A DNA stretch of 20,713 nucleotides from a virus (IMGVR_UViG_2537562021_000003:1-20713), one strand, 5' to 3'; numbered from the stretch's first letter, positions 1-20,713 are shown. Notes: generated by a model from the sequence alone, not told the origin. Numbers and translations are program-made.

Positions 1-30
1 GAGTTGAACCCGCGTCCGAAATTCCTACAT
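1..30 (-). other. Attachment-site core: 3'-terminal segment of tmRNA gene ssrA, truncated by the window edge
   Basis: Bases 1..30 are identical to 19331..19360, which is the inner part of the 45-nt ssrA 3'-end match at 19316..19360. Confidence 0.7.
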
Positions 31-156
31 ACTATTTTTAATACAATGAAAACAGTAGTTTGCGTTTAAAAACAGTGTGTTACTATTATCCTGTGTTTAT
101 CCGTTTTACGCATTTTTAATGCTCTGCCGCCAAGTTGTCGCCAATTTTAGGCTAAC

Positions 157-1170
157 TTACGGTTGGCTGTTTTTAACATTCAAAAGAAAGTTCTTCCAAA
201 TTATTAGCAGTGAATTTTTATCTAAATCAATCTTATGAGGTTTGATGTTTTTTCCTTCATATATATTTTTATAATAGCAATCGATAGCAAAATGAATAGT
301 TAAATTATCTGGATGTATGGCTAGTAGACCTCGGTCAAGCAAGGCATGAAGGGTAGGTTCAAGAGGTATTCCATTGTTGGTTCTATGGTTTTGGGTCTGA
401 GAAAATGGTTCAAGGTGACATGCCTGCAATACTGGGAGGTTGTAACCTGTTATTGCGCATACATTTGAGAAGTTTTTTAGAACCCTTTTTTTAAAGTCAA
501 CCTGTTCGCCAGAGTCACGCTGTAATACTGTTTGCAGATGAGTATTGCCTTTTGTGACAACTGGTATACTAATTGTATCAGAGGGATTTATAAATATGAC
601 TGGCGGTAGAGTAGGTTCTAGAATGTTTTTTTGTCCAAGAAACTGCCTTGATAATAATTCATCTTTAGCGATTTTTATTGCTTCACTTTTTGTTAATGAA
701 AGGCATGCCAGATTATACGCATCTACATTGAAATATTTAGTTTCCCTGTTTAGCGTAATGGATGATATTTTTTTATCGTGTTCTGCTATTGGTATACCTT
801 TTGTGACAGGATGCGAAATGCTTTCAAGCAGTGTTGTATTGCCATTTATTTCTTTATTAAACAATGAGGTAGGGTGTTCAATCATATTGCTATGCTTGGC
901 GCGATAGTGCTCATATAGGCCATGAGCACTTTTGAAATTTTTCTTGCATATTATACAGCTAACATTTCCCCCATTAATTTTTTTTGAATTTCTTTTTCTG
1001 GATTCAACAAGAGAGTTTGTTAGATCTTCTCTTAGTTTTAATATTCTGAGGTTGGTTGGGTTGTTTCCTCGTCTATATGGTAAGCTCTCAAGTCTATTTA
1101 ACTCATTTTTGAGGTGTTGGTACTGTTTACGTGAAATTAAATTAGGTTTCATATTTAAGATTAAGATCAC
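157..1170 (-). CDS. Cargo protein with N-terminal C2H2-like zinc finger and C-terminal HNH-like nuclease motif (candidate exclusion/defence nuclease)
   Basis: 337-aa ORF, visibly AT-rich compared with the backbone. CIICKKNFKSAHGLYEHYRAKH has C-x2-C-x12-H-x4-H spacing. The C-terminus CAITG...LQACHLEPF...NNGIPLEPTLHALLDRGLLAI resembles the HNH_2-type motif as I recall it. Start is GTG at 1170 or ATG at 1152; no clear SD. Confidence 0.6.
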   Translation of the reverse strand: MILILNMKPNLISRKQYQHLKNELNRLESLPYRRGNNPTNLRILKLREDLTNSLVESRKRNSKKINGGNVSCIICKKNFKSAHGLYEHYRAKHSNMIEHPTSLFNKEINGNTTLLESISHPVTKGIPIAEHDKKISSITLNRETKYFNVDAYNLACLSLTKSEAIKIAKDELLSRQFLGQKNILEPTLPPVIFINPSDTISIPVVTKGNTHLQTVLQRDSGEQVDFKKRVLKNFSNVCAITGYNLPVLQACHLEPFSQTQNHRTNNGIPLEPTLHALLDRGLLAIHPDNLTIHFAIDCYYKNIYEGKNIKPHKIDLDKNSLLIIWKNFLLNVKNSQP

Positions 1171-1192
1171 TTTTGTGTACTTACATTATAAG

Positions 1193-2224
1193 TTACATGT
1201 TATTCGACAAGTATATAAAGTTCAAAGGGTTTTTCGTTACTGCATCTTCCAGATGGTCTGGAGAAAAATGGGCGTAAATCATCGTCATTTTTATATCGGC
1301 ATGGCCCAAAATATCGCGCAGTACCAGTATGTTTCCGCCGTTCATCATGAAATGGCTGGCGAATGTATGGCGTAGAACGTGGGGGCATTGTCCCTCTGGC
1401 AGTTCAATACCAGCTCGTTTTACTGCCCGTTCAAAGGCTTTTCTGCATGGGGTGAATAGCCTTCCTCTGTTTTTAGGGAGTTCGTTGTAAAGATCCTGAG
1501 ATATTGGCACGGTACGGTTTTTCTTGCCCTTCGTCTTGGTATAAGTGATGCGGTATTTGGATAACTGATGGCCCTGCAGATTTTCTGCTTCACTCCACCG
1601 TGCGCCAGTAGCTAGGCATATTTTTGCAATCATTAGTAAGCTAGGGCTTTGAGATTCAGCACATGCCGCCAACAGGCGCTTGATTTCGTCCGTGGAAAGA
1701 AAAGCCAGCTCACCTTCGGCAATTTTGAAGGTCGGAAGTCCTGCCAGCGGGTTTGGTGCTGACCAGTGTCCTAGTTTTTTTAATGTACCGAACACCGATG
1801 ATAGATTGCGCTGTTCAAGGTTTACCGTGCGGGGCTTAACGGGCGACATAAGCGTGCCATCTTCATTTCGTATTTCACCTTTTAACCGTGCTTCGCGGTA
1901 TTTCGTAAAGTCTCCGGCTGTCAGCTCAGAGGCGATGGGGTCGCCTAGACCATTACAGATAATTCTAAGTTTCGCCATGAGGCGCTTGGGGTCTGCGAGT
2001 GTCTGACCATACAGGGAATACCAAAGCTCAATTAATTCTGATAGGCGTCGCCGATCATCCTTTTCACCCAACCACGGTTTTTTATTCACTTCTTCCATTG
2101 TGAAGCTTTCAAACGCAATGGCTTCGCCTTTCGTGGCAAATTGCTTACGCACGCGCTTGCCATTGCGTCCATTGGGATAGCACTCACACAACCATTTTCC
2201 GTTCGGCTGTTTTCTGATGGTCAT
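1193..2224 (-). CDS. int: Tyrosine recombinase, P2/186-type phage integrase
   Basis: 343 aa; C-terminal HVLRHTFASHF...LGHADIKMTMIYAHF fits the H-x-x-R...Y catalytic motif. ATG at 2224 lies 1 nt after the cI stop. Confidence 0.9.
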   Translation of the reverse strand: MTIRKQPNGKWLCECYPNGRNGKRVRKQFATKGEAIAFESFTMEEVNKKPWLGEKDDRRRLSELIELWYSLYGQTLADPKRLMAKLRIICNGLGDPIASELTAGDFTKYREARLKGEIRNEDGTLMSPVKPRTVNLEQRNLSSVFGTLKKLGHWSAPNPLAGLPTFKIAEGELAFLSTDEIKRLLAACAESQSPSLLMIAKICLATGARWSEAENLQGHQLSKYRITYTKTKGKKNRTVPISQDLYNELPKNRGRLFTPCRKAFERAVKRAGIELPEGQCPHVLRHTFASHFMMNGGNILVLRDILGHADIKMTMIYAHFSPDHLEDAVTKNPLNFIYLSNNM

Positions 2225-2225
2225 A

Positions 2226-2858
2226 TCAAAGGCTCTTAATGATTTTCAGTGCGCGGCCTACTACCTCAATGTCATCCAGACCGCACTCAAACGATGAATC
2301 ATCCTGATGCACTACTAATTTGTTTCCCGGGAGTCGAGTCAATTTAACGATGCTTTTTATCCCGTCGATATCGACTAACCACATACCATTTACTGGTGGT
2401 GTTTGGTTGCGATCTATTAAATAAGAATCACCAGAAGTAGTCACCAGCAGTAGGTTGCTTGAGTCTGAGGGGAGTATGCTGCTATCAATGATTGCTTTTC
2501 CAGCATCGACCAATAAACCACCGTTGAGAGTCGCCTTGTCAATTTCAGGAGATACTAGTTCAGAAAGAGGTACAACCTTGCTGGAGTTCACGGAATTGAT
2601 ATTTTTTTTAGGTTCAATGTTTGGACCTGGCTCCCCCTGTCCGGTGGTTAGCCACAGTAAAGAAACTCCTGTTTCCAAGGCGCACTGAATCACCCACTCT
2701 GCAGGAAAACTATCTCTTAAGTATCTGTTTGCCATGGTGCTTTTTGATGCGCCTAAGTGATCGCAAAGTTGCTGTCTGGACTTGAAATCATAGGCTGCCA
2801 TTAGTCTATGGATAGCCTCTCTTCCCCCTGTATTCTCTCCAACCTTTACCTGTATCAT
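2226..2858 (-). CDS. cI: 186-type CI immunity repressor
   Basis: 210 aa; N-terminal AYDFKSRQQLCDHLGASKSTMANRYLRD...CALETGVSLLWLTTGQGE looks like the CI-repressor HTH. Divergent from the pR operon and directly upstream of int. Confidence 0.75.
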   Translation of the reverse strand: MIQVKVGENTGGREAIHRLMAAYDFKSRQQLCDHLGASKSTMANRYLRDSFPAEWVIQCALETGVSLLWLTTGQGEPGPNIEPKKNINSVNSSKVVPLSELVSPEIDKATLNGGLLVDAGKAIIDSSILPSDSSNLLLVTTSGDSYLIDRNQTPPVNGMWLVDIDGIKSIVKLTRLPGNKLVVHQDDSSFECGLDDIEVVGRALKIIKSL

Positions 2859-4803: not shown

Positions 4804-5657
4804 GCACCATCCTGAAATGGGCGGGAAATAAAACCGCCATTATGTCCGAACTGAAAAAACACCTTCCTGCTGGCCCGCGACTGGTTGAACCTTTCGCGGG
4901 TTCCTGTGCTGTGATGATGGAGACGGATTACCCCAGCTATCTGGTTGCGGATATTAATCCTGATTTAATCAACCTCTATAAAAAGGTTGCTGCTGATTGT
5001 GAATCGTTTATATCTCGCGCTAGAGTTTTATTTGAGATCGCAAACAGGGAGGTGGCTTATTACAACATAAGGCAGGAGTTTAATTACTCCACTGAAATTA
5101 CTGATTTCATGAAAGCGGTATATTTCCTGTATCTCAATCGTCACGGTTACCGTGGTTTATGTCGCTATAACAAGAGCGGGCATTTCAACATTCCCTACGG
5201 TAATTATAAAAATCCGTATTTCCCTGAAAAAGAAATTCGCGCATTTGCAGAAAAGGCCCAGCGAGCAACGTTTATCTGCGCCAGCTTTGATGAAACGCTG
5301 GCGATCTTGAAGGCGGGGGATGTGGTGTATTGCGATCCGCCGTATGACGGTACGTTTTCCGGCTATCACACTGATGGTTTCACTGAAGATGACCAGTATC
5401 ACCTGGCATCTGTTCTTGAACATCGGTCATCAGAAGGACATCCGGTCATTGTTTCTAACAGTGACACATCCCTGATCCGTTCGCTGTATCGCAATTTTAC
5501 TCACCACTACATCAAGGCAAAACGCAGCATCGGTGTGGCAGCTGGCGAGGGTAAATCAGCAACAGAAATCATTGCTGTTTCCGGGCCGCGCTGCTGGGTG
5601 GGATTTGATTATTCGCGTGGCGTGGATAGTTCTGCCGTGTACGGAGTACGTGCATGA
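4800..5657 (+). CDS. dam: DNA adenine methyltransferase (Dam-like, orphan)
   Basis: [17 protein letters not shown] and the DPPY motif in [11 protein letters not shown] at 4800 with SD GGAGGTG; ATGA overlaps with the neighbours on both sides. The track's longer ORF starts at 4740. Confidence 0.85.
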
Positions 5658-8068
5658 GCCATGCCGATATGAACAACTGCTGCGGCTTTAACGAGGCTGC
5701 CGCATCGTTCTCATGGAACAGCCCGAAAAAGGCCATTAACCCTTATCTGGACCCGGCGGAAGTTGCGCCGGTTTCTGCGCTTTCAAACCTGATCACTCTG
5801 TACGCTGCCGATAACGAGCAGGAACAGCTGCGCCGCGAGGCACTGAGTGATCAGGTCTGGGAGCGTTATTTCTTTAATGAATCCCGTGATCCTGTCCAGC
5901 GCGAAATGGAGCAGGATAAGCTCATTAGTCGGGCAAAGCTGGCGCATGAGCAGCAGCGTTTTAATCCAGATATGGTCATTCTGGCGGACGTCAATGCCCA
6001 GCCTTCCCATATCAGCAAGCCGCTGATGCAACGTATTGAATACTTCAGCAGCCTGGGCAGGCCAAAGGCTTATTCCCGCTATTTGCGTGAGACGATTAAG
6101 CCATGTCTGGAACGACTGGAGCATGTACGCGACAGTCAGCTATCCGCTTCTTTTCGCTTTATGGCAAGCCATGAAGGGCTGGATGGCCTGCTTATCCTGC
6201 CTGAAATGAGTCAGGATCAGGTGAAGCGCCTGTCTACCCTTGTCGCTGCGCATATGAGCATGTGCCTTGATGCAGCTTGTGGTGATTTGTATGCCACCGA
6301 TGACGTTAAGCCAGAAGAAATCCGCAAGACATGGGAAAAGGTGGCAGCGGAAACCCTGCGTCTGGATGTTATCCCGCCTGCGTTTGAGCAACTCCGTCGG
6401 AAAAGAAACCGCCGTAAACCCGTGCCCTATGAACTCATTCCGGGTTCGCTGGCGCGTATGTTGTGCGCTGACTGGTGGTACCGGAAATTATGGAAGATGC
6501 GTTGCGAATGGCGGGAAGAGCAGTTGCGCGCTGTCTGCCTGGTCAGCAAAAAAGCATCTCCTTATGTCAGCTATGAAGCCGTGATGCATAAACGTGAGCA
6601 GCGCCGTAAGTCGCTGGAGTTTTTCCGTTCTCATGAACTGGTGAACGAAGACGGCGACACGCTGGACATGGAGGATGTGGTAAACGCCAGCAGCAGCAAC
6701 CCTGCGCATCGCCGCAATGAGATGATGGCCTGTGTTAAAGGTCTGGAACTTATCGCGGAAATGCGCGGTGACTGCGCCGTTTTCTACACCATCACCTGTC
6801 CGTCACGTTTCCATTCCACGCTAAATAACGGCAGACCCAACCCGAACTGGACAAATGCGACGGTAAGACAAAGCAGTGATTATTTGGTCGGCATGTTTGC
6901 TGCATTTCGTAAGGCGATGCACAAAGCCGGATTGCGCTGGTATGGCGTGCGGGTGGCTGAGCCGCATCATGACGGTACAGTTCACTGGCACCTGTTGTGT
7001 TTTATGCGCAAAAAAGACCGCCGCGCCATCACTGCATTACTGCGTAAGTTTGCCATCCGTGAAGACCGCGAGGAGCTGGGCAATAACACGGGGCCGCGCT
7101 TTAAGTCTGAGTTGATTAACCCGCGCAAAGGAACGCCGACAAGCTACATCGCGAAATATATCAGTAAGAACATTGACGGGCGTGGTCTGGCTGGCGAGAT
7201 CAGCAAGGAAACGGGTAAATCCCTGCGTGATAACGCTGAATACGTGAATGCCTGGGCGTCTCTGCATCGTGTTCAGCAATTCCGCTTCTTTGGCATTCCG
7301 GGGCGTCAGGCTTACCGTGAACTGCGATTGCTGGCTGGTCAGGCGGCAAGGCAACAGGGTGACAAAAAAGCAGGTGCGCCGGTACTGGATAACCCGCGCC
7401 TTGATGCAATCCTGGCTGCTGCTGATGCTGGTTGTTTTGCCACCTACATCATGAAGCAGGGCGGCGTACTGGTTCCCCGTAAATATCACCTCATCAGAAC
7501 TGCTTATGAAATCAACGAAGAGCCGACCGCCTATGGCGATCACGGCATTCGTATTTATGGCATCTGGTCACCTATTGCAGAGGGCAAGATCTGCACTCAT
7601 GCCGTGAAGTGGAAAATGGTTCGTAAGGCCGTTGACGTTCAGGAGGCGGCAGCCGACCAGGGCGCTTGCGCCCCTTGGACTCGTGGCAATAACTGTCCCC
7701 TTGCTGAAAATTTGAACCAACAGGAGAAAGATAAATCAGCTGATGGGGACCCCAGAACGGACTTTACCCGCATGGATGACAAGGAGTTGCACGATTACCT
7801 GCACAGTATGAACAAAAAGGAGCGCCGGGAACTGGCTGCAAGGTTACGTCTGGTGAAACCGAAACGGCGTAGAGACTACAAACAGCGAATTACAGACCAT
7901 CAACGACAGCAGCTCGTCTATGAACTGAAATCCAGAGGATTTGATGGCAGCGAGAAAGAGGTCGATTTACTCCTTCGCGGCGGCAGTATTCCGTCAGGAG
8001 CAGGCCTGCGTATCTTCTATCGGAACCAGCGTTTGCAGGAAGATGATAAGTGGCGGAACCTGTATTAA
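5654..8068 (+). CDS. A: Replication initiation endonuclease, P2 gene A / 186 RepA family
   Basis: 804 aa; [22 protein letters not shown] and YIAKYISK match the HUH/tyrosine rolling-circle signatures of gpA. Confidence 0.85.
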
Positions 8069-8160
8069 TTACGCTGGTTAACAATTCGTGCTCTTAATAA
8101 TACCAGGCATATCAGGCTGATAAGCGTAAAAAAACGTTTTACATCAGTAAGATTATTATA

Positions 8161-8180
8161 TACTGTAAATATAAACAGTG
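8161..8180. promoter_or_regulatory. LexA (SOS) box
   Basis: TACTGTAAATATAAACAGTG: CTGT-n8-ACAG with an AT-rich spacer, 44 nt upstream of the ATG at 8222. Confidence 0.65.
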
Positions 8181-8221
8181 GTTATACATACAGTGTTGCG
8201 TGTGGTGTCATAGGAGGAAAG

Positions 8222-8410
8222 ATGCAGGACTATTTTTTGGAGTCTTTGAAGCTCCAGCGCATTGATTTTTTTCTTAAGCTTGTAGCGGCTAGTGAGTGTA
8301 GTGATGAAGAGAAGGGGCTGGCTCTGCAGTGGGTTTCTGAATTGACTGATGAACTCATGGCAAAAATCAGAAGCCACGAATACAACCGCTCAATGGATGT
8401 CATCAGCTGA
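8222..8410 (+). CDS. Small SOS-controlled protein, candidate antirepressor N-terminal part (Tum-like by position)
   Basis: 62 aa with strong SD AGGAGG at 8212..8217; its stop overlaps the SD of the DinI-like gene. Confidence 0.55.
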   Translation: MQDYFLESLKLQRIDFFLKLVAASECSDEEKGLALQWVSELTDELMAKIRSHEYNRSMDVIS

Positions 8411-8420
8411 GGTGACTTTT

Positions 8421-8654
8421 ATGCGCATTGAAATAATGATCGATAAAGAGCAGAAGATTAGCCAGTCTACCTTGGACGCCCTTGAATCCGAGCTTTACCG
8501 CAATCTGCGCCCCCTGTATCCCAAAACGGTAATCCGTATCCGTAAAGGTAGCTCTAACGGTGTGGAACTGACCGGACTGCAACTGGACGAAGAAAGAAAA
8601 CAAGTGATGAAAATTATGCAGAAGGTGTGGGAAGACGACAGCTGGCTGCATTGA
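8421..8654 (+). CDS. DinI-family protein
   Basis: 77 aa; MRIEIMIDKEQ...IRKGSSNGVELTGL...VMKIMQKVWEDDSW parallels E. coli DinI as I recall it. SD GAGGTG at 8409..8414. Confidence 0.75.
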   Translation: MRIEIMIDKEQKISQSTLDALESELYRNLRPLYPKTVIRIRKGSSNGVELTGLQLDEERKQVMKIMQKVWEDDSWLH

Positions 8655-8707
8655 TTTTGTCAATAGACGCTTGTTTTTACTAATCAAAAAGGGTTACATA
8701 TGAGTGA

Positions 8708-8741
8708 GAGGCGATGTCAATCAGATATCGCCTTGTTTTTT
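8708..8741 (+). terminator. Candidate intrinsic terminator after the DinI-like gene
   Basis: Stem AGGCGAT (8709..8715) / ATCGCCT (8727..8733) then TTGTTTTTT; the loop is long (11 nt), so weak. Confidence 0.4.
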
Positions 8742-8767
8742 GTCAAGAAAAGAATAATAGGCTAAAA

Positions 8768-9445
8768 ATGAAAATTAATAATGTAGCGTTACCAATATCT
8801 CTTGCTGTAATCCTAACTGGTTGCGTGCCACATGCTTCTAACCGAAATATCACTGCTATTGAAGTGGTGAAGCCTGCTATTGGGCAAAGTGCTACCGCCT
8901 ACATGGGCGATCCCATTATCACATCTGCTACTGGATTTAAAACGGACGTACTAGAACTTGGTGCGGCTAATGGTGCATTGTCTTCTATCGCTGCTGGTAC
9001 ATATTGCAGTGAGGGGAATGGAATTTACCGCAATTATCATAACCCTCAAGCTGTTGCGTTAAAAAATCTCTATGGGCAAATCGGTAACTATGTTGATTAT
9101 GTTAGTTACGATGCTGCAAAAAATGAGATATCACCGCCAAATGGTACTTCTTATACTGCATCAGAAATTTCTATCAAACGTGTTCCTGATGGGCTGTGTC
9201 GAGTTAGTAACTCATTGGTTAAGACTATCGAATACAATGGAAATGCAGGCGGTGTAATGAAGTTCACCTATCGTGAATTTGCAAACGATATGGCTCGTGC
9301 AGCATTTACAACAGATTTTTCTGTAGATTCTAAGGGAAGTGACGTTATCGCTTACAAAGGTGCCAAGTTCAAAGTGAACAAGGCTGATAACTCGTCTATT
9401 TCTTATACAATTATTTCTGGCTTTGACAAGGCTGTCACGTTCTAG
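8768..9445 (+). CDS. Lipoprotein of unknown function (cargo)
   Basis: MKINNVALPISLAVILTGC is a signal peptide with lipobox LTGC; AT-rich codon usage. The track's upstream start at 8714 lies inside the terminator hairpin. Confidence 0.65.
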   Translation: MKINNVALPISLAVILTGCVPHASNRNITAIEVVKPAIGQSATAYMGDPIITSATGFKTDVLELGAANGALSSIAAGTYCSEGNGIYRNYHNPQAVALKNLYGQIGNYVDYVSYDAAKNEISPPNGTSYTASEISIKRVPDGLCRVSNSLVKTIEYNGNAGGVMKFTYREFANDMARAAFTTDFSVDSKGSDVIAYKGAKFKVNKADNSSISYTIISGFDKAVTF

Positions 9446-9864: not shown

Positions 9865-10464
9865 TTGTCCGAAAATGACATTAAAGTAGTCGCCTTTAAT
9901 GTCGTAAGCATGAAGGACAGAGAATTGAACTTAGAGCAGATTGCCAGTCAAAGTATAAGTAACCTTCAGTTTCTCCTCGATACTTTGAAGATGCCGTTGG
10001 CTGTTGGTCCAATCAGTGATGAAGACTATGTGATCCTGACCACAGGATACGCTCAGCTAGAATGGGATTATGGTTTTTCTCGGTTTGGCAATCGAAGTGA
10101 TAAGTTTGAATTTTGTTTGAAGCTCCTTGCGGGGCCACTTAGGCATATCCCTTCTGGCGCAGCTATGTGCACCTTTGACGAGGACGCTGGAGTCATAGAG
10201 ATCCATTTTGTGGAATCTTTTGTGAAAGATGATGACGTAGAGCACCCTCTTTACGGCAACATGTTCATGGTTACATTGTGGGCGGTATATCTTTTTGGTA
10301 GCGCGGTTGGGTGTCAAGAGATTCGGATCCCTGAAGCCCTGAATCAAAAAGTTGCTGACCACTATAAAAAATTTGGTTTTAAAGGTGATATAAGCTTGCT
10401 TTCGGCACCTTTTGCTACAATAACTGATGTAGTAAGACGCTACATTACTTCTAAGAAACAGTAG
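9865..10464 (+). CDS. Hypothetical cargo protein; C-terminus possibly GNAT-like
   Basis: 199-aa ORF from TTG 9865 (or 184 aa from ATG 9910); no strong SD for either. IRIPEALNQKVADHYKKFGF resembles GNAT motif B; no clear motif A. Confidence 0.5.
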   Translation: MSENDIKVVAFNVVSMKDRELNLEQIASQSISNLQFLLDTLKMPLAVGPISDEDYVILTTGYAQLEWDYGFSRFGNRSDKFEFCLKLLAGPLRHIPSGAAMCTFDEDAGVIEIHFVESFVKDDDVEHPLYGNMFMVTLWAVYLFGSAVGCQEIRIPEALNQKVADHYKKFGFKGDISLLSAPFATITDVVRRYITSKKQ

Positions 10465-10778: not shown

Positions 10779-11816
10779 CTAGTCAGTATTAAGCTCATAT
10801 GGATTGAATCGGACTACCTCTTCACCAAGCCATTCATTTAGCTCCAGCAATCGCTTTTGTAACGGTACTATTTCGTTTCTTGTGAAGACGCGACTGGCCT
10901 TTTCCACATCCCCAAAACCGCCGGTATTGTTGGGAATGATACCCATCATTTGCGGCGGCACACGATGCGCCGCCATCATGTCGTCCCGGCTCACGTTCTT
11001 GATATTCAGGAACTCATCCTTCGCCGCCACTTCTGACAACGGGATAATCTGAAGCCCATCCTTTTTGCCGTTAGGCGAGTACATAAACAGGTTACGGAAG
11101 TTACCAGGACCTTTGGCACTTTTCATTGCGTTGCGGAGGTTGTTCACATCCTCCTGGTTCTGCGCGGCGTCGGTCATGTACATGATGAAGCCCGCATGGC
11201 TGCCGTTAATGTAATACTTCCGGCGGAACAGCGTGGCGGACTCGTTGAGCAGGGCTGACGGAATGGCAGAAAGATAACCGGGCAGGCCGTAGATCTCCTG
11301 GTTGATGTCCGGCTCCATCAGATGAAAAATGCTGCCTTTCGTGAACTGATACGGCTGGGTTGTCATACCGTATTGCACAAACCAGTAGGTATCCAGGTCT
11401 AACCCGCGTCGGGTGTATTTTGCCAGAGCAGGCTCAAGGGCTATAACTTCACCGAAGCGGTTCGTGCGTTTCTCCAGGTAGGCGTTACCAAAAACCAGAA
11501 AGTCCTGTACAAAACGCGAAAAAGCCTGCTGGCTGAGCAGCGGGTGAGGGATGTAGGTGCTGGTCAGAATGTTGCACTTCACTGCAATCGGTGAGCTATG
11601 ATGTATGGCGGCGCGGAAGGTTCGCGCCAGTCCGTCGAAACTCACAGGCAGCTCATACCAACGATCCATCTGTACGCATTCCACATAGTCCAGCAGTTCG
11701 CGGCGGTCCAGAACAGGAACGGGATCACCGAAGCTGAATGCTTCGGCTGAAGTCTGGCTTTTATGCTGGATCTGTTTCGTCGACGCAGCGCGGTTCTTCT
11801 TACTCTTTCCCATCAA
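10779..11816 (-). CDS. Q: Portal protein, P2 gpQ family
   Basis: 345 aa (P2 Q is about the same size), directly followed on the same strand by the terminase ORF. Confidence 0.8.
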   Translation of the reverse strand: MMGKSKKNRAASTKQIQHKSQTSAEAFSFGDPVPVLDRRELLDYVECVQMDRWYELPVSFDGLARTFRAAIHHSSPIAVKCNILTSTYIPHPLLSQQAFSRFVQDFLVFGNAYLEKRTNRFGEVIALEPALAKYTRRGLDLDTYWFVQYGMTTQPYQFTKGSIFHLMEPDINQEIYGLPGYLSAIPSALLNESATLFRRKYYINGSHAGFIMYMTDAAQNQEDVNNLRNAMKSAKGPGNFRNLFMYSPNGKKDGLQIIPLSEVAAKDEFLNIKNVSRDDMMAAHRVPPQMMGIIPNNTGGFGDVEKASRVFTRNEIVPLQKRLLELNEWLGEEVVRFNPYELNTD

Positions 11817-13613: not shown

Positions 13614-13747
13614 CGGTTGATGATCTGGTGGCAGATATCGCCACCATTTTTCACTGGCCGCCATCCGTTACTGACGTTATGCCGCTGACCGAAGTGCTGG
13701 AATGGCGGTATAAAGCGATTCAGAGAAGCGGGGCCAACGATGAGTGA
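13311..13747 (+). CDS. gpE+E' product of a -1 programmed frameshift
   Basis: After the slip at 13568..13574 the -1 frame stays open to TGA at 13745..13747 (...MPLTEVLEWRYKAIQRSGANDE), overlapping the T start. Confidence 0.6.
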
Positions 13748-16700
13748 TAATAACCTGCGCCTTCAGGTCATTCTTAATGCGGTTGACAAACTCACCCGCC
13801 CATTCCGTGCTGCACAGGCCAGTTCGAAAGAGCTGGCTGGCGCAATTCAGAATACCCGAAACAGCCTCAAAGAACTGAATAAGCAGGCTGGCAGAATTGA
13901 TGAATTTCGCAAGACGCGCTCGCAACTAGCCATAACAGCCAACAACCTGAACGCAGCCCGCGAAGAGGCGGCAAAACTCGCCACACAATTTGCTGCCACT
14001 AACAGGCCAACCGCCGCGCAGGCAAAGTTATTCAGTCAGGCCAAAACACGAGTGCAGGAACTTCAGCAGACCTATAACGGCTTGTTGGGGGCGGTCCAGA
14101 GACAACGTCAGGCACTTAAAGAATCAGGGATTGATACCAGACAACTCAGTAGTGCCCAGCGAGAACTTAAGAAAAATGCTGAAGAAACAAGGCAGGCACT
14201 GGAGGGCCAGCAAAAAGCACTTAAACGTCTGGGTGAACAACAGGCACGGATGAACGCTGCCAGAGAACAATACTCAAGACGGCTTGAAGTGCGCGATCGC
14301 ATCGCAGGAGCCGGAGCCACTACCACGGCTGCAGGGCTGGCAATGGGTGCGCCAGTGATGGCGGCAGTAAAAAGCTATACCAGCATGGAAGATGCCATGA
14401 AAGGTGTGGCAAAGCAGGTCAATGGTCTGCGTGACGATAATGGCAACCGCACTGCACGTTTTTATGAAATGCAGGATGCCATCAAGGCTGCCAGCGAACA
14501 GTTGCCGATGGAAAACGGTGCGGTGGACTTCGCTGCACTGGTTGAAGGTGGTGCGCGCATGAACGTCGCAAACCCTGACGACAGCTGGGAAGACCAGAAA
14601 CGTGACCTGCTGGCCTTCGCCAGTACGGCAGCAAAGGCGGCAACAGCCTTTGAGCTGCCAGCGGATGAACTGTCAGAAAGTCTGGGGAAAATCGCCCAGC
14701 TCTACAAAATACCTACCCGCAATATTGAACAGCTCGGCGATGCGCTGAACTATCTGGATGATAACGCCATGTCGAAAGGGGCGGACATCATTGATGTGAT
14801 GCAACGTCTGGGCGGTGTGGCTGACCGTCTGGATTATCGTAAAGCGGCGGCACTGGGTTCCACCTTTCTGACACTGGGCGCTGCGCCGGAGGTTGCAGCC
14901 AGTGCAGCAAACGCGATGGTGCGTGAATTGTCCATTGCCACCATGCAAAGCAAGAGTTTCTTTGAAGGGATGAATCTGCTGAAACTCAATCCTGAAGTGA
15001 TTGAAAAGCAGATGACGAAGGATGCGATGGGAACTATCCAGCGTGTGCTGGAGAAGGTGAACGCACTGCCGCAGGACAAGCGTCTGTCTGCCATGACCAT
15101 GTTGTTTGGTAAAGAGTTTGGTGATGACGCGGCGAAACTGGCAAACAACCTGCCGGAACTGCAGCGCCAGCTAAAACTGACAGCGGGCAATGATGCGCTC
15201 GGTTCCATGCAGAAAGAATCCGACATCAACAAAGACTCACTTTCTGCTCAGTGGTTGCTGGTCAAAACCGGAGCGCAGAACACCTTCAGCAGCCTGGGCG
15301 AAACGCTGCGCCAGCCGCTGATGGATATTCTGTACACGGTGAAAAGCATCATGGGGGCGTTGCGCCGCTGGGTGGAAGCTAACCCGGAACTGACAGGCAC
15401 ACTGATGAAAGTAGCGGCTGTTGTGGCTGCGGTTACCGTAGGCCTCGGCACCTTAGCGGTGACGCTGGCTGCAGTGCTGGGGCCGCTGGCAGTCATCCGT
15501 CTGGGATTCTCTGTGCTGGGTATCAAAACGTTACCTTCCGTTACGGCAGCAGTAACACGAACCAGCAGCGCGTTGTCCTGGTTAGCTGGCGCTCCACTGG
15601 CACTGCTGCGACGCGGGCTTGCTTCATCGGGCAACGCAGCGGGTTTACTTACTGCGCCGTTGTCGTCTTTGCGCCGTACGGCATCACTGACGGGAAATGT
15701 CCTGAAAACTGTAGCAGGTGCGCCGGTTGCACTTTTGCGGTCTGGATTATCCGGTTTACGTGCTGTTGCTGTGATGTTTATGAATCCTCTGGCGGTACTG
15801 CGCGGTGGACTGGTCGCCGCAGGCACGGTGCTGCGAGTACTGGCATCTGGTCCACTGGCGATGCTGCGCGTTGCCCTGTATGCCGTATCTGGTCTGTTAG
15901 GTACTCTGCTCAGTCCGATAGGTCTTGTGGTTACTGCACTGGCAGGCGTGGCGCTGGTTGTCTGGAAATACTGGCAACCCATCACCGCATTTCTCGCTGG
16001 TGTGGTGGAAGGATTCAAAGCGGCGGCAGGTCCCATCAGTGCAGCATTCGAACCACTTAAGCCTGTGTTTCAGTGGATTGGCGACAAAGTGCAGGCGTTG
16101 TGGGGCTGGTTTACTGATCTGCTGACGCCCGTTAAGTCGACCTCTGCCGAACTGCAGAGCGCAGCGGCAATGGGGCGACGATTTGGGGAGGCACTGGCGG
16201 AAGGGCTGAATATGGTCATGCATCCGCTGGACTCCCTGAAATCCGGCGTTTCCTGGTTGCTGGAGAAACTCGGCATTGTCAGTAAAGAGGCTGCAAAGGC
16301 GAAACTGCCGGAAAGCGTGACGCGTCAGCAACCTGCGACGGTGAATGCAGACGGTAAAGTGATGATGCCATCGGGTGGTTTTCCGTCATGGGGATATGGC
16401 TTTGCGGGGATGTATGACAGCGGCGGCTATATCCCGCGCGGGCAGTTCGGCATTGTCGGTGAAAACGGGCCGGAAATTGTCAACGGTCCGGCAAACGTGA
16501 CCAGCCGGAGAAATACCGCTGCACTGGCTGCGGTTGTCGCCGGAATGATGGGAGTTGCTGCCGCGCCAGCAGAGCTTCCACCGTTGCATCCTTTGGCGCT
16601 TCCCGCGAAAGGCGGTGAAGCGATGGTGAGTCGCGTAGCTGCTGTGCCGCCCGTTCACCGGATTGAGGCACCGACGCAGATCATCATCCAGACGCAGCCA

Positions 16701-16817
16701 GGACAAAGTGCGCAGGATATTGCGCGGGAGGTGGCACGCCAGCTTGATGAACGTGAACGCAGGCTGAAGGCAAAAGCCAGGAGTAACTACAGCGATCAGG
16801 GGGGATACGACGCATGA
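13740..16817 (+). CDS. T: Tail tape measure protein gpT
   Basis: 1025 aa, helical N-terminus, Ala/Gly/Leu-rich middle, at the T position after E/E'. Confidence 0.85.
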   Translation: MSDNNLRLQVILNAVDKLTRPFRAAQASSKELAGAIQNTRNSLKELNKQAGRIDEFRKTRSQLAITANNLNAAREEAAKLATQFAATNRPTAAQAKLFSQAKTRVQELQQTYNGLLGAVQRQRQALKESGIDTRQLSSAQRELKKNAEETRQALEGQQKALKRLGEQQARMNAAREQYSRRLEVRDRIAGAGATTTAAGLAMGAPVMAAVKSYTSMEDAMKGVAKQVNGLRDDNGNRTARFYEMQDAIKAASEQLPMENGAVDFAALVEGGARMNVANPDDSWEDQKRDLLAFASTAAKAATAFELPADELSESLGKIAQLYKIPTRNIEQLGDALNYLDDNAMSKGADIIDVMQRLGGVADRLDYRKAAALGSTFLTLGAAPEVAASAANAMVRELSIATMQSKSFFEGMNLLKLNPEVIEKQMTKDAMGTIQRVLEKVNALPQDKRLSAMTMLFGKEFGDDAAKLANNLPELQRQLKLTAGNDALGSMQKESDINKDSLSAQWLLVKTGAQNTFSSLGETLRQPLMDILYTVKSIMGALRRWVEANPELTGTLMKVAAVVAAVTVGLGTLAVTLAAVLGPLAVIRLGFSVLGIKTLPSVTAAVTRTSSALSWLAGAPLALLRRGLASSGNAAGLLTAPLSSLRRTASLTGNVLKTVAGAPVALLRSGLSGLRAVAVMFMNPLAVLRGGLVAAGTVLRVLASGPLAMLRVALYAVSGLLGTLLSPIGLVVTALAGVALVVWKYWQPITAFLAGVVEGFKAAAGPISAAFEPLKPVFQWIGDKVQALWGWFTDLLTPVKSTSAELQSAAAMGRRFGEALAEGLNMVMHPLDSLKSGVSWLLEKLGIVSKEAAKAKLPESVTRQQPATVNADGKVMMPSGGFPSWGYGFAGMYDSGGYIPRGQFGIVGENGPEIVNGPANVTSRRNTAALAAVVAGMMGVAAAPAELPPLHPLALPAKGGEAMVSRVAAVPPVHRIEAPTQIIIQTQPGQSAQDIAREVARQLDERERRLKAKARSNYSDQGGYDA

Positions 16818-19315: not shown

Positions 19316-19360
19316 TGGTGGAGCTGGCGGGAGTTGAACCCGCGTCCGAAATTCCTACAT
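19316..19360 (-). other. Attachment-site core: 3'-terminal 45 nt of ssrA (tmRNA), not a complete gene
   Basis: TGGTGGAGCTGGCGGGAGTTGAACCCGCGTCCGAAATTCCTACAT is the reverse complement of the E. coli tmRNA 3' end (recalled); the match stops at 19361 where AT-rich phage sequence begins. Confidence 0.75.
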
Positions 19361-19486
19361 ACTATTTTTAATACAATGAAAACAGTAGTTTGCGTTTAAA
19401 AACAGTGTGTTACTATTATCCTGTGTTTATCCGTTTTACGCATTTTTAATGCTCTGCCGCCAAGTTGTCGCCAATTTTAGGCTAAC

Positions 19487-20500
19487 TTACGGTTGGCTGT
19501 TTTTAACATTCAAAAGAAAGTTCTTCCAAATTATTAGCAGTGAATTTTTATCTAAATCAATCTTATGAGGTTTGATGTTTTTTCCTTCATATATATTTTT
19601 ATAATAGCAATCGATAGCAAAATGAATAGTTAAATTATCTGGATGTATGGCTAGTAGACCTCGGTCAAGCAAGGCATGAAGGGTAGGTTCAAGAGGTATT
19701 CCATTGTTGGTTCTATGGTTTTGGGTCTGAGAAAATGGTTCAAGGTGACATGCCTGCAATACTGGGAGGTTGTAACCTGTTATTGCGCATACATTTGAGA
19801 AGTTTTTTAGAACCCTTTTTTTAAAGTCAACCTGTTCGCCAGAGTCACGCTGTAATACTGTTTGCAGATGAGTATTGCCTTTTGTGACAACTGGTATACT
19901 AATTGTATCAGAGGGATTTATAAATATGACTGGCGGTAGAGTAGGTTCTAGAATGTTTTTTTGTCCAAGAAACTGCCTTGATAATAATTCATCTTTAGCG
20001 ATTTTTATTGCTTCACTTTTTGTTAATGAAAGGCATGCCAGATTATACGCATCTACATTGAAATATTTAGTTTCCCTGTTTAGCGTAATGGATGATATTT
20101 TTTTATCGTGTTCTGCTATTGGTATACCTTTTGTGACAGGATGCGAAATGCTTTCAAGCAGTGTTGTATTGCCATTTATTTCTTTATTAAACAATGAGGT
20201 AGGGTGTTCAATCATATTGCTATGCTTGGCGCGATAGTGCTCATATAGGCCATGAGCACTTTTGAAATTTTTCTTGCATATTATACAGCTAACATTTCCC
20301 CCATTAATTTTTTTTGAATTTCTTTTTCTGGATTCAACAAGAGAGTTTGTTAGATCTTCTCTTAGTTTTAATATTCTGAGGTTGGTTGGGTTGTTTCCTC
20401 GTCTATATGGTAAGCTCTCAAGTCTATTTAACTCATTTTTGAGGTGTTGGTACTGTTTACGTGAAATTAAATTAGGTTTCATATTTAAGATTAAGATCAC
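19487..20500 (-). CDS. Second copy of the zinc-finger/HNH-like nuclease gene
   Basis: Identical 337-aa translation to 157..1170. Confidence 0.6.
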   Translation of the reverse strand: MILILNMKPNLISRKQYQHLKNELNRLESLPYRRGNNPTNLRILKLREDLTNSLVESRKRNSKKINGGNVSCIICKKNFKSAHGLYEHYRAKHSNMIEHPTSLFNKEINGNTTLLESISHPVTKGIPIAEHDKKISSITLNRETKYFNVDAYNLACLSLTKSEAIKIAKDELLSRQFLGQKNILEPTLPPVIFINPSDTISIPVVTKGNTHLQTVLQRDSGEQVDFKKRVLKNFSNVCAITGYNLPVLQACHLEPFSQTQNHRTNNGIPLEPTLHALLDRGLLAIHPDNLTIHFAIDCYYKNIYEGKNIKPHKIDLDKNSLLIIWKNFLLNVKNSQP

Positions 20501-20522
20501 TTTTGTGTACTTACATTATAAG

Positions 20523-20713
20523 TTACATGTTATTCGACAAGTATATAAAGTTCAAAGGGTTTTTCGTTACTGCATCTTCCAGATGGTCTGGAGAAAAATG
20601 GGCGTAAATCATCGTCATTTTTATATCGGCATGGCCCAAAATATCGCGCAGTACCAGTATGTTTCCGCCGTTCATCATGAAATGGCTGGCGAATGTATGG
20701 CGTAGAACGTGGG
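20523..20713 (-). CDS. int: Integrase, C-terminal part of a second copy (truncated by window end)
   Basis: Identical to 1193..1383, encoding the catalytic C-terminus. Confidence 0.8.
   Translation of the reverse strand, partial: HVLRHTFASHFMMNGGNILVLRDILGHADIKMTMIYAHFSPDHLEDAVTKNPLNFIYLSNNM

Follow-up and report, generated by a model that had tools for sequence, protein, structure and literature searches.

The locus that follows replication gene A in the prophage DNA analysed here is probably an SOS-induction module of the Fels-2 type, a LexA-controlled operon with a split TumA/TumB-type arrangement. In the window, which is the whole 20,713-nt stretch of viral DNA that was analysed, a near-consensus LexA box (8161..8180) is followed by a 62-aa open reading frame (ORF62, 8222..8410) and a DinI-family ORF (8421..8654), all located 3′ of gene A.

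In the mechanism proposed for this locus, LexA would occupy a double operator over the −10 element in a healthy lysogen and keep the two-gene operon silent. Upon DNA damage, RecA-stimulated self-cleavage of LexA would allow the operon to be transcribed. The TumA-type product, a 62-aa helical hairpin, would then bind the 186-type repressor CI and stop it from binding its operators, leaving CI uncleaved. With CI inactivated, the early lytic promoter would fire and the prophage would be induced. The TumB-type product, a 77-aa protein whose start lies 10 nt past the first stop codon, would most likely modulate the SOS response through RecA filaments rather than act on CI, and a strong terminator would end the SOS unit. 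Such a module would be the switch that couples prophages very common in E. coli, Klebsiella and Salmonella to DNA damage. The 652-bp locus is found in 1125 of 5426 complete E. coli genomes (~20%), and E. coli chromosomes match the window locus at 99.8%.

The window is a Fels-2-type (Felsduovirus, P2/186-like) prophage. It encodes an integrase (1193..2224, minus strand), a 186-type CI immunity repressor (2226..2858, minus strand, 210 aa), CII (PF06892), a Dam methylase and an 804-aa homologue of gene A (5654..8068). CI, the presumed target of the antirepressor, matches PF07022 (E = 5e-31) and PF16452 (E = 6e-28) and is 33% identical to 186 CI over 193 residues (E = 5e-36). The SOS box begins 93 nt past the gene A stop, and the module directly follows gene A as it does in 186, in agreement with the placement given in a first-pass annotation of this DNA. 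At its other end, the two-gene unit is closed by an intrinsic terminator (8708..8743, plus strand) that consists of a hairpin with an 11-bp stem (8708..8734) and a T-run (GTTTTTTGT). The terminator RNA folds at −16.7 kcal/mol (z = −3.8), none of 200 shuffled sequences was as stable, and the element was also flagged by a terminator scan. A 243-aa ORF further downstream was considered as a homologue of 186 orf97 and rejected despite its equal length and position, being an unrelated lipoprotein gene.

ORF62 and its presumed repressor target

ORF62 lies on the plus strand, with its ATG at 8222, its TGA at 8408..8410 and a Shine–Dalgarno (SD) sequence, AGGAGG, at 8212..8217. The protein belongs to phrog_698 (E = 5.9e-38 over its full length) and also matches phrog_8554 (1.1e-8) and phrog_1993, the family of PSP3 TumA (E = 0.002); no family was found for it in Pfam or NCBIfam. 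Its AlphaFold model is a two-helix hairpin (H2-23 and H28-61; pLDDT 90), for which a Foldseek search of BFVD returned no match with E below 0.49. RefSeq lists the protein as 'hypothetical protein', and some database records call it 'levan regulatory protein'.

The first-pass annotation had regarded both ORFs as Tum-like. For ORF62 this was borne out by profile comparison and not by BLASTP, which gave no alignment of ORF62 with either 186 Tum or PSP3 TumA. PSP3 TumA itself does not align with 186 Tum by BLASTP, which indicates that pairwise comparison is powerless for domains this short, and profiles were therefore used. A profile search with the first 70 residues of 186 Tum matched phrog_1993 (2e-23), phrog_8554 (3.3e-12) and phrog_698 (6.7e-6); residues 7-44 of Tum align to positions 7-44 of the phrog_698 profile, in register. 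Between the two proteins stands phrog_8554, a bridging family matched by both ORF62 and the N-terminal half of 186 Tum. An hhalign comparison of 27 distinct ORF62 sequences with 86 Tum N-domain sequences paired columns 1-43 with columns 1-43 at P = 3.8e-4, with a probability of just 36% and both profiles shallow. At the profile level only, ORF62 is classed as remotely homologous to the N-terminal half of 186 Tum. Stand-alone forms of the 186-type N-domain, 63-78 aa in length, also exist and carry the NCBI name 'Tum protein'. By eye, ORF62 and Tum can be seen to have in common an ungapped motif made up of a Cys, six residues and [LI]-A-L-x-[LW]-[IV]-[AS]-[ED]-[LI].

A 186-type CI is not known to be induced by cleaving itself, and for this reason an antirepressor is needed. 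ORF62 is presumed to encode this CI antirepressor, of the TumA type, and its product would be expected to bind the CI of the window. Pairing between the two proteins can be followed across a comparison set of 33 related loci from different Enterobacterales species. ORF62 is 72-98% identical across loci, in contrast to CI, encoded ~6 kb upstream, which is 32-93% identical to the window CI; the CI positions that are conserved occur in the HTH domain as well as in the C-terminal domain. This lack of covariance between ORF62 and CI is unlike what a tightly specific repressor-binding protein would display. A coarser association is nevertheless seen between Tum type and CI clade. Measured against 186 CI, the repressor reaches 61% identity or more in most loci with a 186-type Tum, but does not exceed 41% in 22 of 23 ORF62-type loci, L025 being the exception with 60%. 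This fits matching at the level of families; it could equally reflect shared phage lineage.

It is unlikely, though it is the alternative that survives best, that ORF62 is an SOS-induced small protein with another role, directed at the host or at interference between phages, and equally unlikely, as part of the same reading, that induction depends on something else and leaves the DinI-like protein as the sole Tum-related part. Reciprocal profile matches that tie ORF62, phrog_8554, phrog_1993 and the N-terminal half of 186 Tum in register from residue 1 argue against another role; the missing pairwise similarity of ORF62 to Tum or TumA is a point in its favor. The PSP3 tumA gene moreover shares the position, size, promoter type and downstream partner of ORF62, a CI that does not cleave itself requires an antirepressor, and loss of LexA induces Fels-2 (PMC8072944). 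Other features that would suit a different role are the lack of a Pfam or NCBIfam family, an ORF62 sequence that does not follow CI divergence, a fold that is a generic helical hairpin, and the 'levan regulatory protein' name in some records.

Promoter and operator

The near-consensus SOS box reported in the first-pass annotation is confirmed. This first box (8161..8180, plus strand; TACTGTAAATATAAACAGTG) has three mismatches to the 20-nt LexA consensus, a perfect CTGT-N8-ACAG core, and overlaps the putative −10 element. It is the sole CTGT-N8-ACAG in the 20.7-kb window, and none of 100 dinucleotide shuffles gave a match. Of the 33 related loci, 25 keep an intact CTGT-N8-ACAG core in an upstream box, and six more have a near-match (CCAG or CTGC). 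Relative to the −10 element, the box sits where the 186 annotation places its putative LexA site.

The putative sigma-70 promoter spans 8138..8166 on the plus strand, with a −35 element TTTACA (8138..8143), a 17-nt spacer and a −10 element TACTGT (8161..8166). An alternative −10, TATACT (8159..8164), would leave a 15-nt spacer, and an A-tract (8128..8134) lies 5′ of the promoter. By analogy, this promoter is the putative counterpart of 186 p95, which has a −35 element TTCACA, an 18-nt spacer and a −10 element TACTGT inside its LexA box. A generic promoter scan flagged no promoter at the SOS operon, because the −10 element matches at only 3/6 positions. In an alignment of 22 upstream regions, the conserved blocks are an A5 tract, a probable −35 element (TTTACA), a probable −10 region (TATACTGT) and the first SOS box, followed by a second element, (G)TGGATATAnATACAGT, and then by AGGAGGGAA and the ATG, with spacers that vary.

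A second, degenerate SOS box is located at 8176..8195 (plus strand; CAGTGGTTATACATACAGTG), with a 16-nt core at 8178..8193. The cores of the two boxes (8163..8178 and 8178..8193) have G8178 in common, and the left arm of the second is degenerate (GTGG). The window shares the combined pattern, CTGT-N8-NCAG-N11-ACAG, with 22 of the 33 related loci; the more distant ORF62 loci, L026-L033, carry one box only. The double arrangement of the window lineage also differs from 186 and PSP3, each of which has a single SOS box.

A plasmid search with 8156..8200 as the query returned more than 1,800 records. Among the plasmid matches listed, those at 83-86% identity over 42 nt are mostly to plasmids of ~9.3 kb. 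One plasmid that was inspected is a ColE1-type replicon, in which a colicin-like bacteriocin gene starts ~40 nt downstream of the match. The operator of this bacteriocin plasmid (TATACTGTATATAAAACCAGTGGTTATATGTACAGTA) can be compared with that of the window (TATACTGTAAATATAAACAGTGGTTATACATACAGTG), and in the bacteriocin operator too the left arm of the second box is degenerate. On the basis of the shared core base and of this comparison, the window operator is a colicin-type double overlapping SOS operator with two predicted LexA sites. The regulated genes differ, as colicin and cloacin operators control a bacteriocin whereas the operator in the window would control a prophage antirepressor. 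Colicin-type double operators are bound by two LexA dimers, which results in tight repression (PMC2994835), and both boxes in the window may likewise bind LexA.

It is improbable that the SOS box arose by chance or is a mere vestige and that the operon is expressed by early lytic read-through via gene A. The weak −10 element, the generic scan that flags no promoter here and the co-orientation of the genes with gene A would be consistent with this alternative. The first box, however, is not expected by chance; across genera, the flanks have diverged around a conserved box and conserved promoter elements; and the operator is close to the LexA operators of bacteriocin genes. Expression data from Fels-2 also argue against read-through, as the orthologue there is induced by a mutagen alongside known LexA-regulon genes. 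In a Fels-2+ Salmonella strain, STM2727 rose 5.5- to 14.8-fold with the mutagen MX, alongside recN, sulA and umuD, and STM2726-STM2727-STM2728 was scored as one responding operon (PMC2225428). Judging by its locus tag, STM2727 would be the Fels-2 dinI-like gene; the tag in the phage record is STM2726.1, and the sources do not equate the two.

The two-gene junction

The tumB-type gene (8421..8654, plus strand) encodes a 77-aa DinI-family protein and is preceded by an SD sequence, GAGGTGA, at 8409..8415. The TGA of ORF62 overlaps this SD, the stop-to-ATG gap is 10 nt, and the two ORFs lie in different frames. The first-pass annotation had described a 62-aa ORF ending inside the SD of a 77-aa DinI-like ORF, and this holds. 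The start of the DinI-like ORF is at 8421 rather than at the implied 8422. As it had further noted, the combined size of 62 + 77 = 139 aa, in two frames, is near the 146 aa of 186 Tum.

Assignment of the second protein is straightforward. It matches PF06183 with E = 6.6e-23 (81.3 bits, against a cut-off of 24.2) over profile positions 1-63 of 63. It aligns with residues 71-145 of 186 Tum at 41% identity (E = 3e-24), which upholds the proposed likeness to Tum for this ORF, and with PSP3 TumB at 78% identity over all 77 residues (E = 2e-47). Against NCBIfam NF007893, the equivalog of chromosomal DinI, it scores 42.7 bits, below the cut-off of 111, and is therefore regarded as a phage DinI-like paralogue and not as host DinI. 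Modulation of RecA and the SOS response has been proposed for DinI and for truncated forms of 186 Tum (PMC3121763; notes in the 186 record), and the DinI-like protein of the window probably also acts on RecA.

Comparison of the related loci addresses whether the split is natural. ORF62 is exactly 62 codons long in 29 of the 33, and its pairwise dN/dS does not rise above 0.24, with a median of 0.07 (342 pairs, 30 species); this low ratio marks ORF62 as a coding gene under constraint, with its C-terminal tail included. A dinI-like gene follows ORF62 in 20 loci, always 9-12 nt past the stop and with its own SD, and from one locus to another it is read in frame 0, +1 or +2 with respect to ORF62. 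The gene is absent in 13 of the 33 loci and truncated in three, all of which keep ORF62. In the window, the dinI frame continues without a stop for 25 codons 5′ of its ATG, back to 8349, and overlaps the end of ORF62. This long open upstream stretch is present in the window, in its closest relative (L004) and in L024; outside the window and L004, 1-21 codons are open upstream of dinI, and 1-14 when L024 is left out too. Among the 80 closest viral relatives of 186 Tum, 77 have the 186-type Tum as a fused protein.

With ORF62 constrained in both length and dN/dS, and with a dinI gene that has its own SD and a variable frame, the split is, as judged from these sequences, an old and stable gene arrangement and no pseudogene. 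Of the two readings offered in the first-pass annotation, a naturally split antirepressor/DinI pair is thus the one that stands.

A small hairpin at the junction (8399..8416) was considered as a device for translational coupling and was rejected, with z = −0.85 relative to shuffled sequences and no conservation at other loci.

A Tum-like fusion made by programmed frameshifting or stop read-through, and serving as the active antirepressor, is highly improbable. The active antirepressor of 186 is a fused protein, the frames overlap in the window, and the ORF62 stop lies in the loop of the hairpin just described. The shift needed, however, would differ by locus (0, +1 or +2), and 13 of the 33 loci have no dinI gene to fuse with; because of this variable relative frame and the frequent absence of dinI, such a fusion is rejected. 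The weakness of the hairpin and its lack of conservation at other junctions point in the same direction, and there is no conserved slippery heptamer.

Barely credible is the other reading of the first-pass annotation, a decaying tum pseudogene in which a one-base indel within 8349..8410 split a fused Tum of 139-146 aa: the 25 open codons that overlap the end of ORF62, the near-Tum sum of the two lengths and the prevalence of the fused form among viral loci are all that suggest it, whereas ORF62 ends at codon 62 in nearly all loci under constraint that extends into its tail, dinI starts from an SD and ATG of its own, whichever of the three relative frames it occupies, the open stretch where the indel was suspected is peculiar to the window, L004 and L024, and the cultured phages Fels-2 and PSP3 share the two-gene layout.

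Comparison with known systems

Work on 186, PSP3 and Fels-2 from 1989 to 2011 established the combination of a LexA-repressed antirepressor, acting on a non-cleavable CI, with a DinI-like protein. The split tum module is already known from Fels-2 and PSP3, and because this arrangement has been described there, the module in the window is real but ordinary. Its practical value is one of annotation, since ORF62 is recorded as a 'hypothetical protein' though the specialist literature treats the Fels-2/PSP3-type gene as an antirepressor. The remaining interest lies in this annotation gap, in the colicin-like double operator and in the apparent breadth of CI partners.

Two tentative and perhaps unreported readings take up the last two features: control of the antirepressor by a colicin-type double SOS operator in Fels-2-type prophages, and a phrog_698 TumA that acts as a broad-spectrum antirepressor; on present evidence they are possible rather than likely. 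If the double operator is used, induction may require a higher damage threshold, or occur later, than in 186. If TumA is broad-spectrum, one induced prophage could cross-induce heteroimmune P2-like prophages, and the DinI gene would be an optional accessory that about a third of lineages have lost.

Fels-2, a prophage of Salmonella LT2, is the closest known counterpart. It is 96.9% identical to the window over 652 bp (8069..8720), a region that includes the promoter, both boxes, both ORFs and the 10-nt junction. Its corresponding genes are STM2728, whose product is 97% identical to that of ORF62, and STM2726.1, which is DinI-like. The two sequences differ by a few point differences, the window being from an E. 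coli-type relative. In the Fels-2 record, the ORF62 counterpart is labelled 'hypothetical protein'. Bunny, Liu and Roth 2002 (J Bacteriol 184:6235), cited here through PMC3121763, is the primary paper on Fels-2 tum. The literature covered here yielded no experiment on a phrog_698-type protein itself, and a literature search on TumA/TumB returned no relevant papers. Lemire et al. 2011 described Tum as resembling an antirepressor-DinI fusion and tum as split in Fels-2 and PSP3 (PMC3121763). According to the same source, antirepressor activity in PSP3 resides in the upstream gene, a statement that is a personal communication quoted second-hand and that concerns a TumA of a different family from ORF62 (PMC3121763).

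PSP3 has the same layout as the window, with a LexA box over the −10 element, a gene of ~60 codons and, a few nucleotides later, a gene for a 77-aa DinI-like protein, all after gene A. The PSP3 record describes tumA (60 aa) as 'similar to 5' end 186 tum; UV induction of prophage' and tumB (77 aa) as 'similar to dinI and 3' end of 186 tum'. PSP3 TumA belongs to phrog_1993, the family that 186 Tum matches at 2e-23, whereas ORF62 reaches that family at E = 0.002. The PSP3 CI is also longer than that of the window (286 aa compared with 210 aa).

In 186, gene A is likewise followed by a LexA-repressed promoter, p95, with its site over the −10 element, then by tum and by the partial terminator t95a, whose position is matched by the terminator of the window, and then by orf97. 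Unlike the two genes of the window, 186 Tum carries both domains in one 146-aa polypeptide, joined by a linker of ~25 residues, and internal starts in tum also give truncated, DinI-like forms. In PMC3121763 and PMC7708051, the 186-type CI is described as not being induced by self-cleavage and Tum as inactivating CI, with reference to Shearwin et al. 1998. According to the literature, Tum does so by binding to CI, which can then no longer bind DNA.

A further parallel is provided by the gfoA and gftA operons of the Salmonella Gifsy prophages, which are LexA-controlled and encode a DinI homologue together with a small, trans-acting antirepressor that binds an uncleaved repressor (PMC3121763). 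The Gifsy operons differ from the window in that dinI comes first, the antirepressor and repressor families are different, and the phages are lambdoid.

Window ends and gene content

The first and last 1383 bases of the window (1..1383 and 19331..20713) are identical base for base; the window is therefore a unit of 19,330 bp that carries a long terminal repeat. The contig may be circular and have been read beyond its starting point, or the two ends may form a perfect direct repeat. This unit is a genome of the P2-like kind, and the 33-kb phage Cartapus covers only 68% of it. An apparent portal gene is placed at 10779..11816 (minus strand) by size and position only, followed by a minor-tail/tape-measure-type gene at 13740..16817 (PF10145). 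The segment between these two seems to lack the capsid and lysis genes and most of the tail genes, pointing either to a prophage with a deletion or to a collapse in the assembly.

Two further ORFs lie in the window. The first, a 337-aa ORF on the minus strand, has a match to the HNH_2 endonuclease domain (PF13391, E = 9e-11). It adjoins the integrase gene within the repeated end, and thus occurs at both 157..1170 and 19487..20500. This endonuclease ORF is not known to belong to the core P2/186 gene set. The second, a 199-aa ORF of unknown function (9865..10464), matches phrog_4350 (E = 3e-77) and has no match in Pfam or NCBIfam searches. It is flanked by the lipoprotein and portal genes, and so occupies the right-end site where P2-like genomes carry cargo.

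The lipoprotein-like gene

The lipoprotein-like gene spans 8714..9445, with a likely true start at 8768, and features a lipobox (MKINNVALPISLAVILTGC) and a match to phrog_1353 (E = 4e-105). A promoter-like site at 8740..8769 belongs to this gene itself. Its Fels-2 homologue, STM2726, has been scored as co-regulated with SOS genes (PMC2225428). In 186, the corresponding place is occupied by orf97; the maximal ORF in the window equals orf97 in length (243 aa), and direct comparison of the two found no sequence similarity.

ORF62 and its partner genes

The tumA-type gene ORF62 (8222..8410) is labelled 'hypothetical protein' in RefSeq (E. coli records H161-H168), although 1125 of the 5426 complete E. 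coli genomes contain its locus. It appears in a few records as 'levan regulatory (domain) protein', a name that nothing in the present analysis supports.

The downstream dinI-like gene (8421..8654) is absent from about a third of related prophages (L008, L010, L019, L022, L027-L034 and L036), where ORF62 stands alone behind the SOS box, and is truncated in three further loci (L007, L018 and L035). ORF62 itself remains intact in nearly all cases.

One locus, L025 from Pantoea stewartii, departs from the association between Tum type and CI repressor clade. This locus carries an ORF62-type gene with 84% identity, together with a CI (about 150..725 of the locus) that shares 60% identity with 186 CI and only 35% with the CI of the window (2226..2858, minus strand).

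The SOS operator and its counterparts

SOS box 1 (8161..8180) is overlapped by a second, degenerate box at 8176..8195, a putative LexA site recognized by sequence pattern. Together, the two predicted boxes constitute a colicin-type double operator, an arrangement kept in two-thirds of the related loci (22 of 33). Among the matches listed, this operator shares 83-86% identity with the operator upstream of a bacteriocin gene carried by ColE1-type plasmids. Phages 186 and PSP3 differ in this respect, each having one SOS box.
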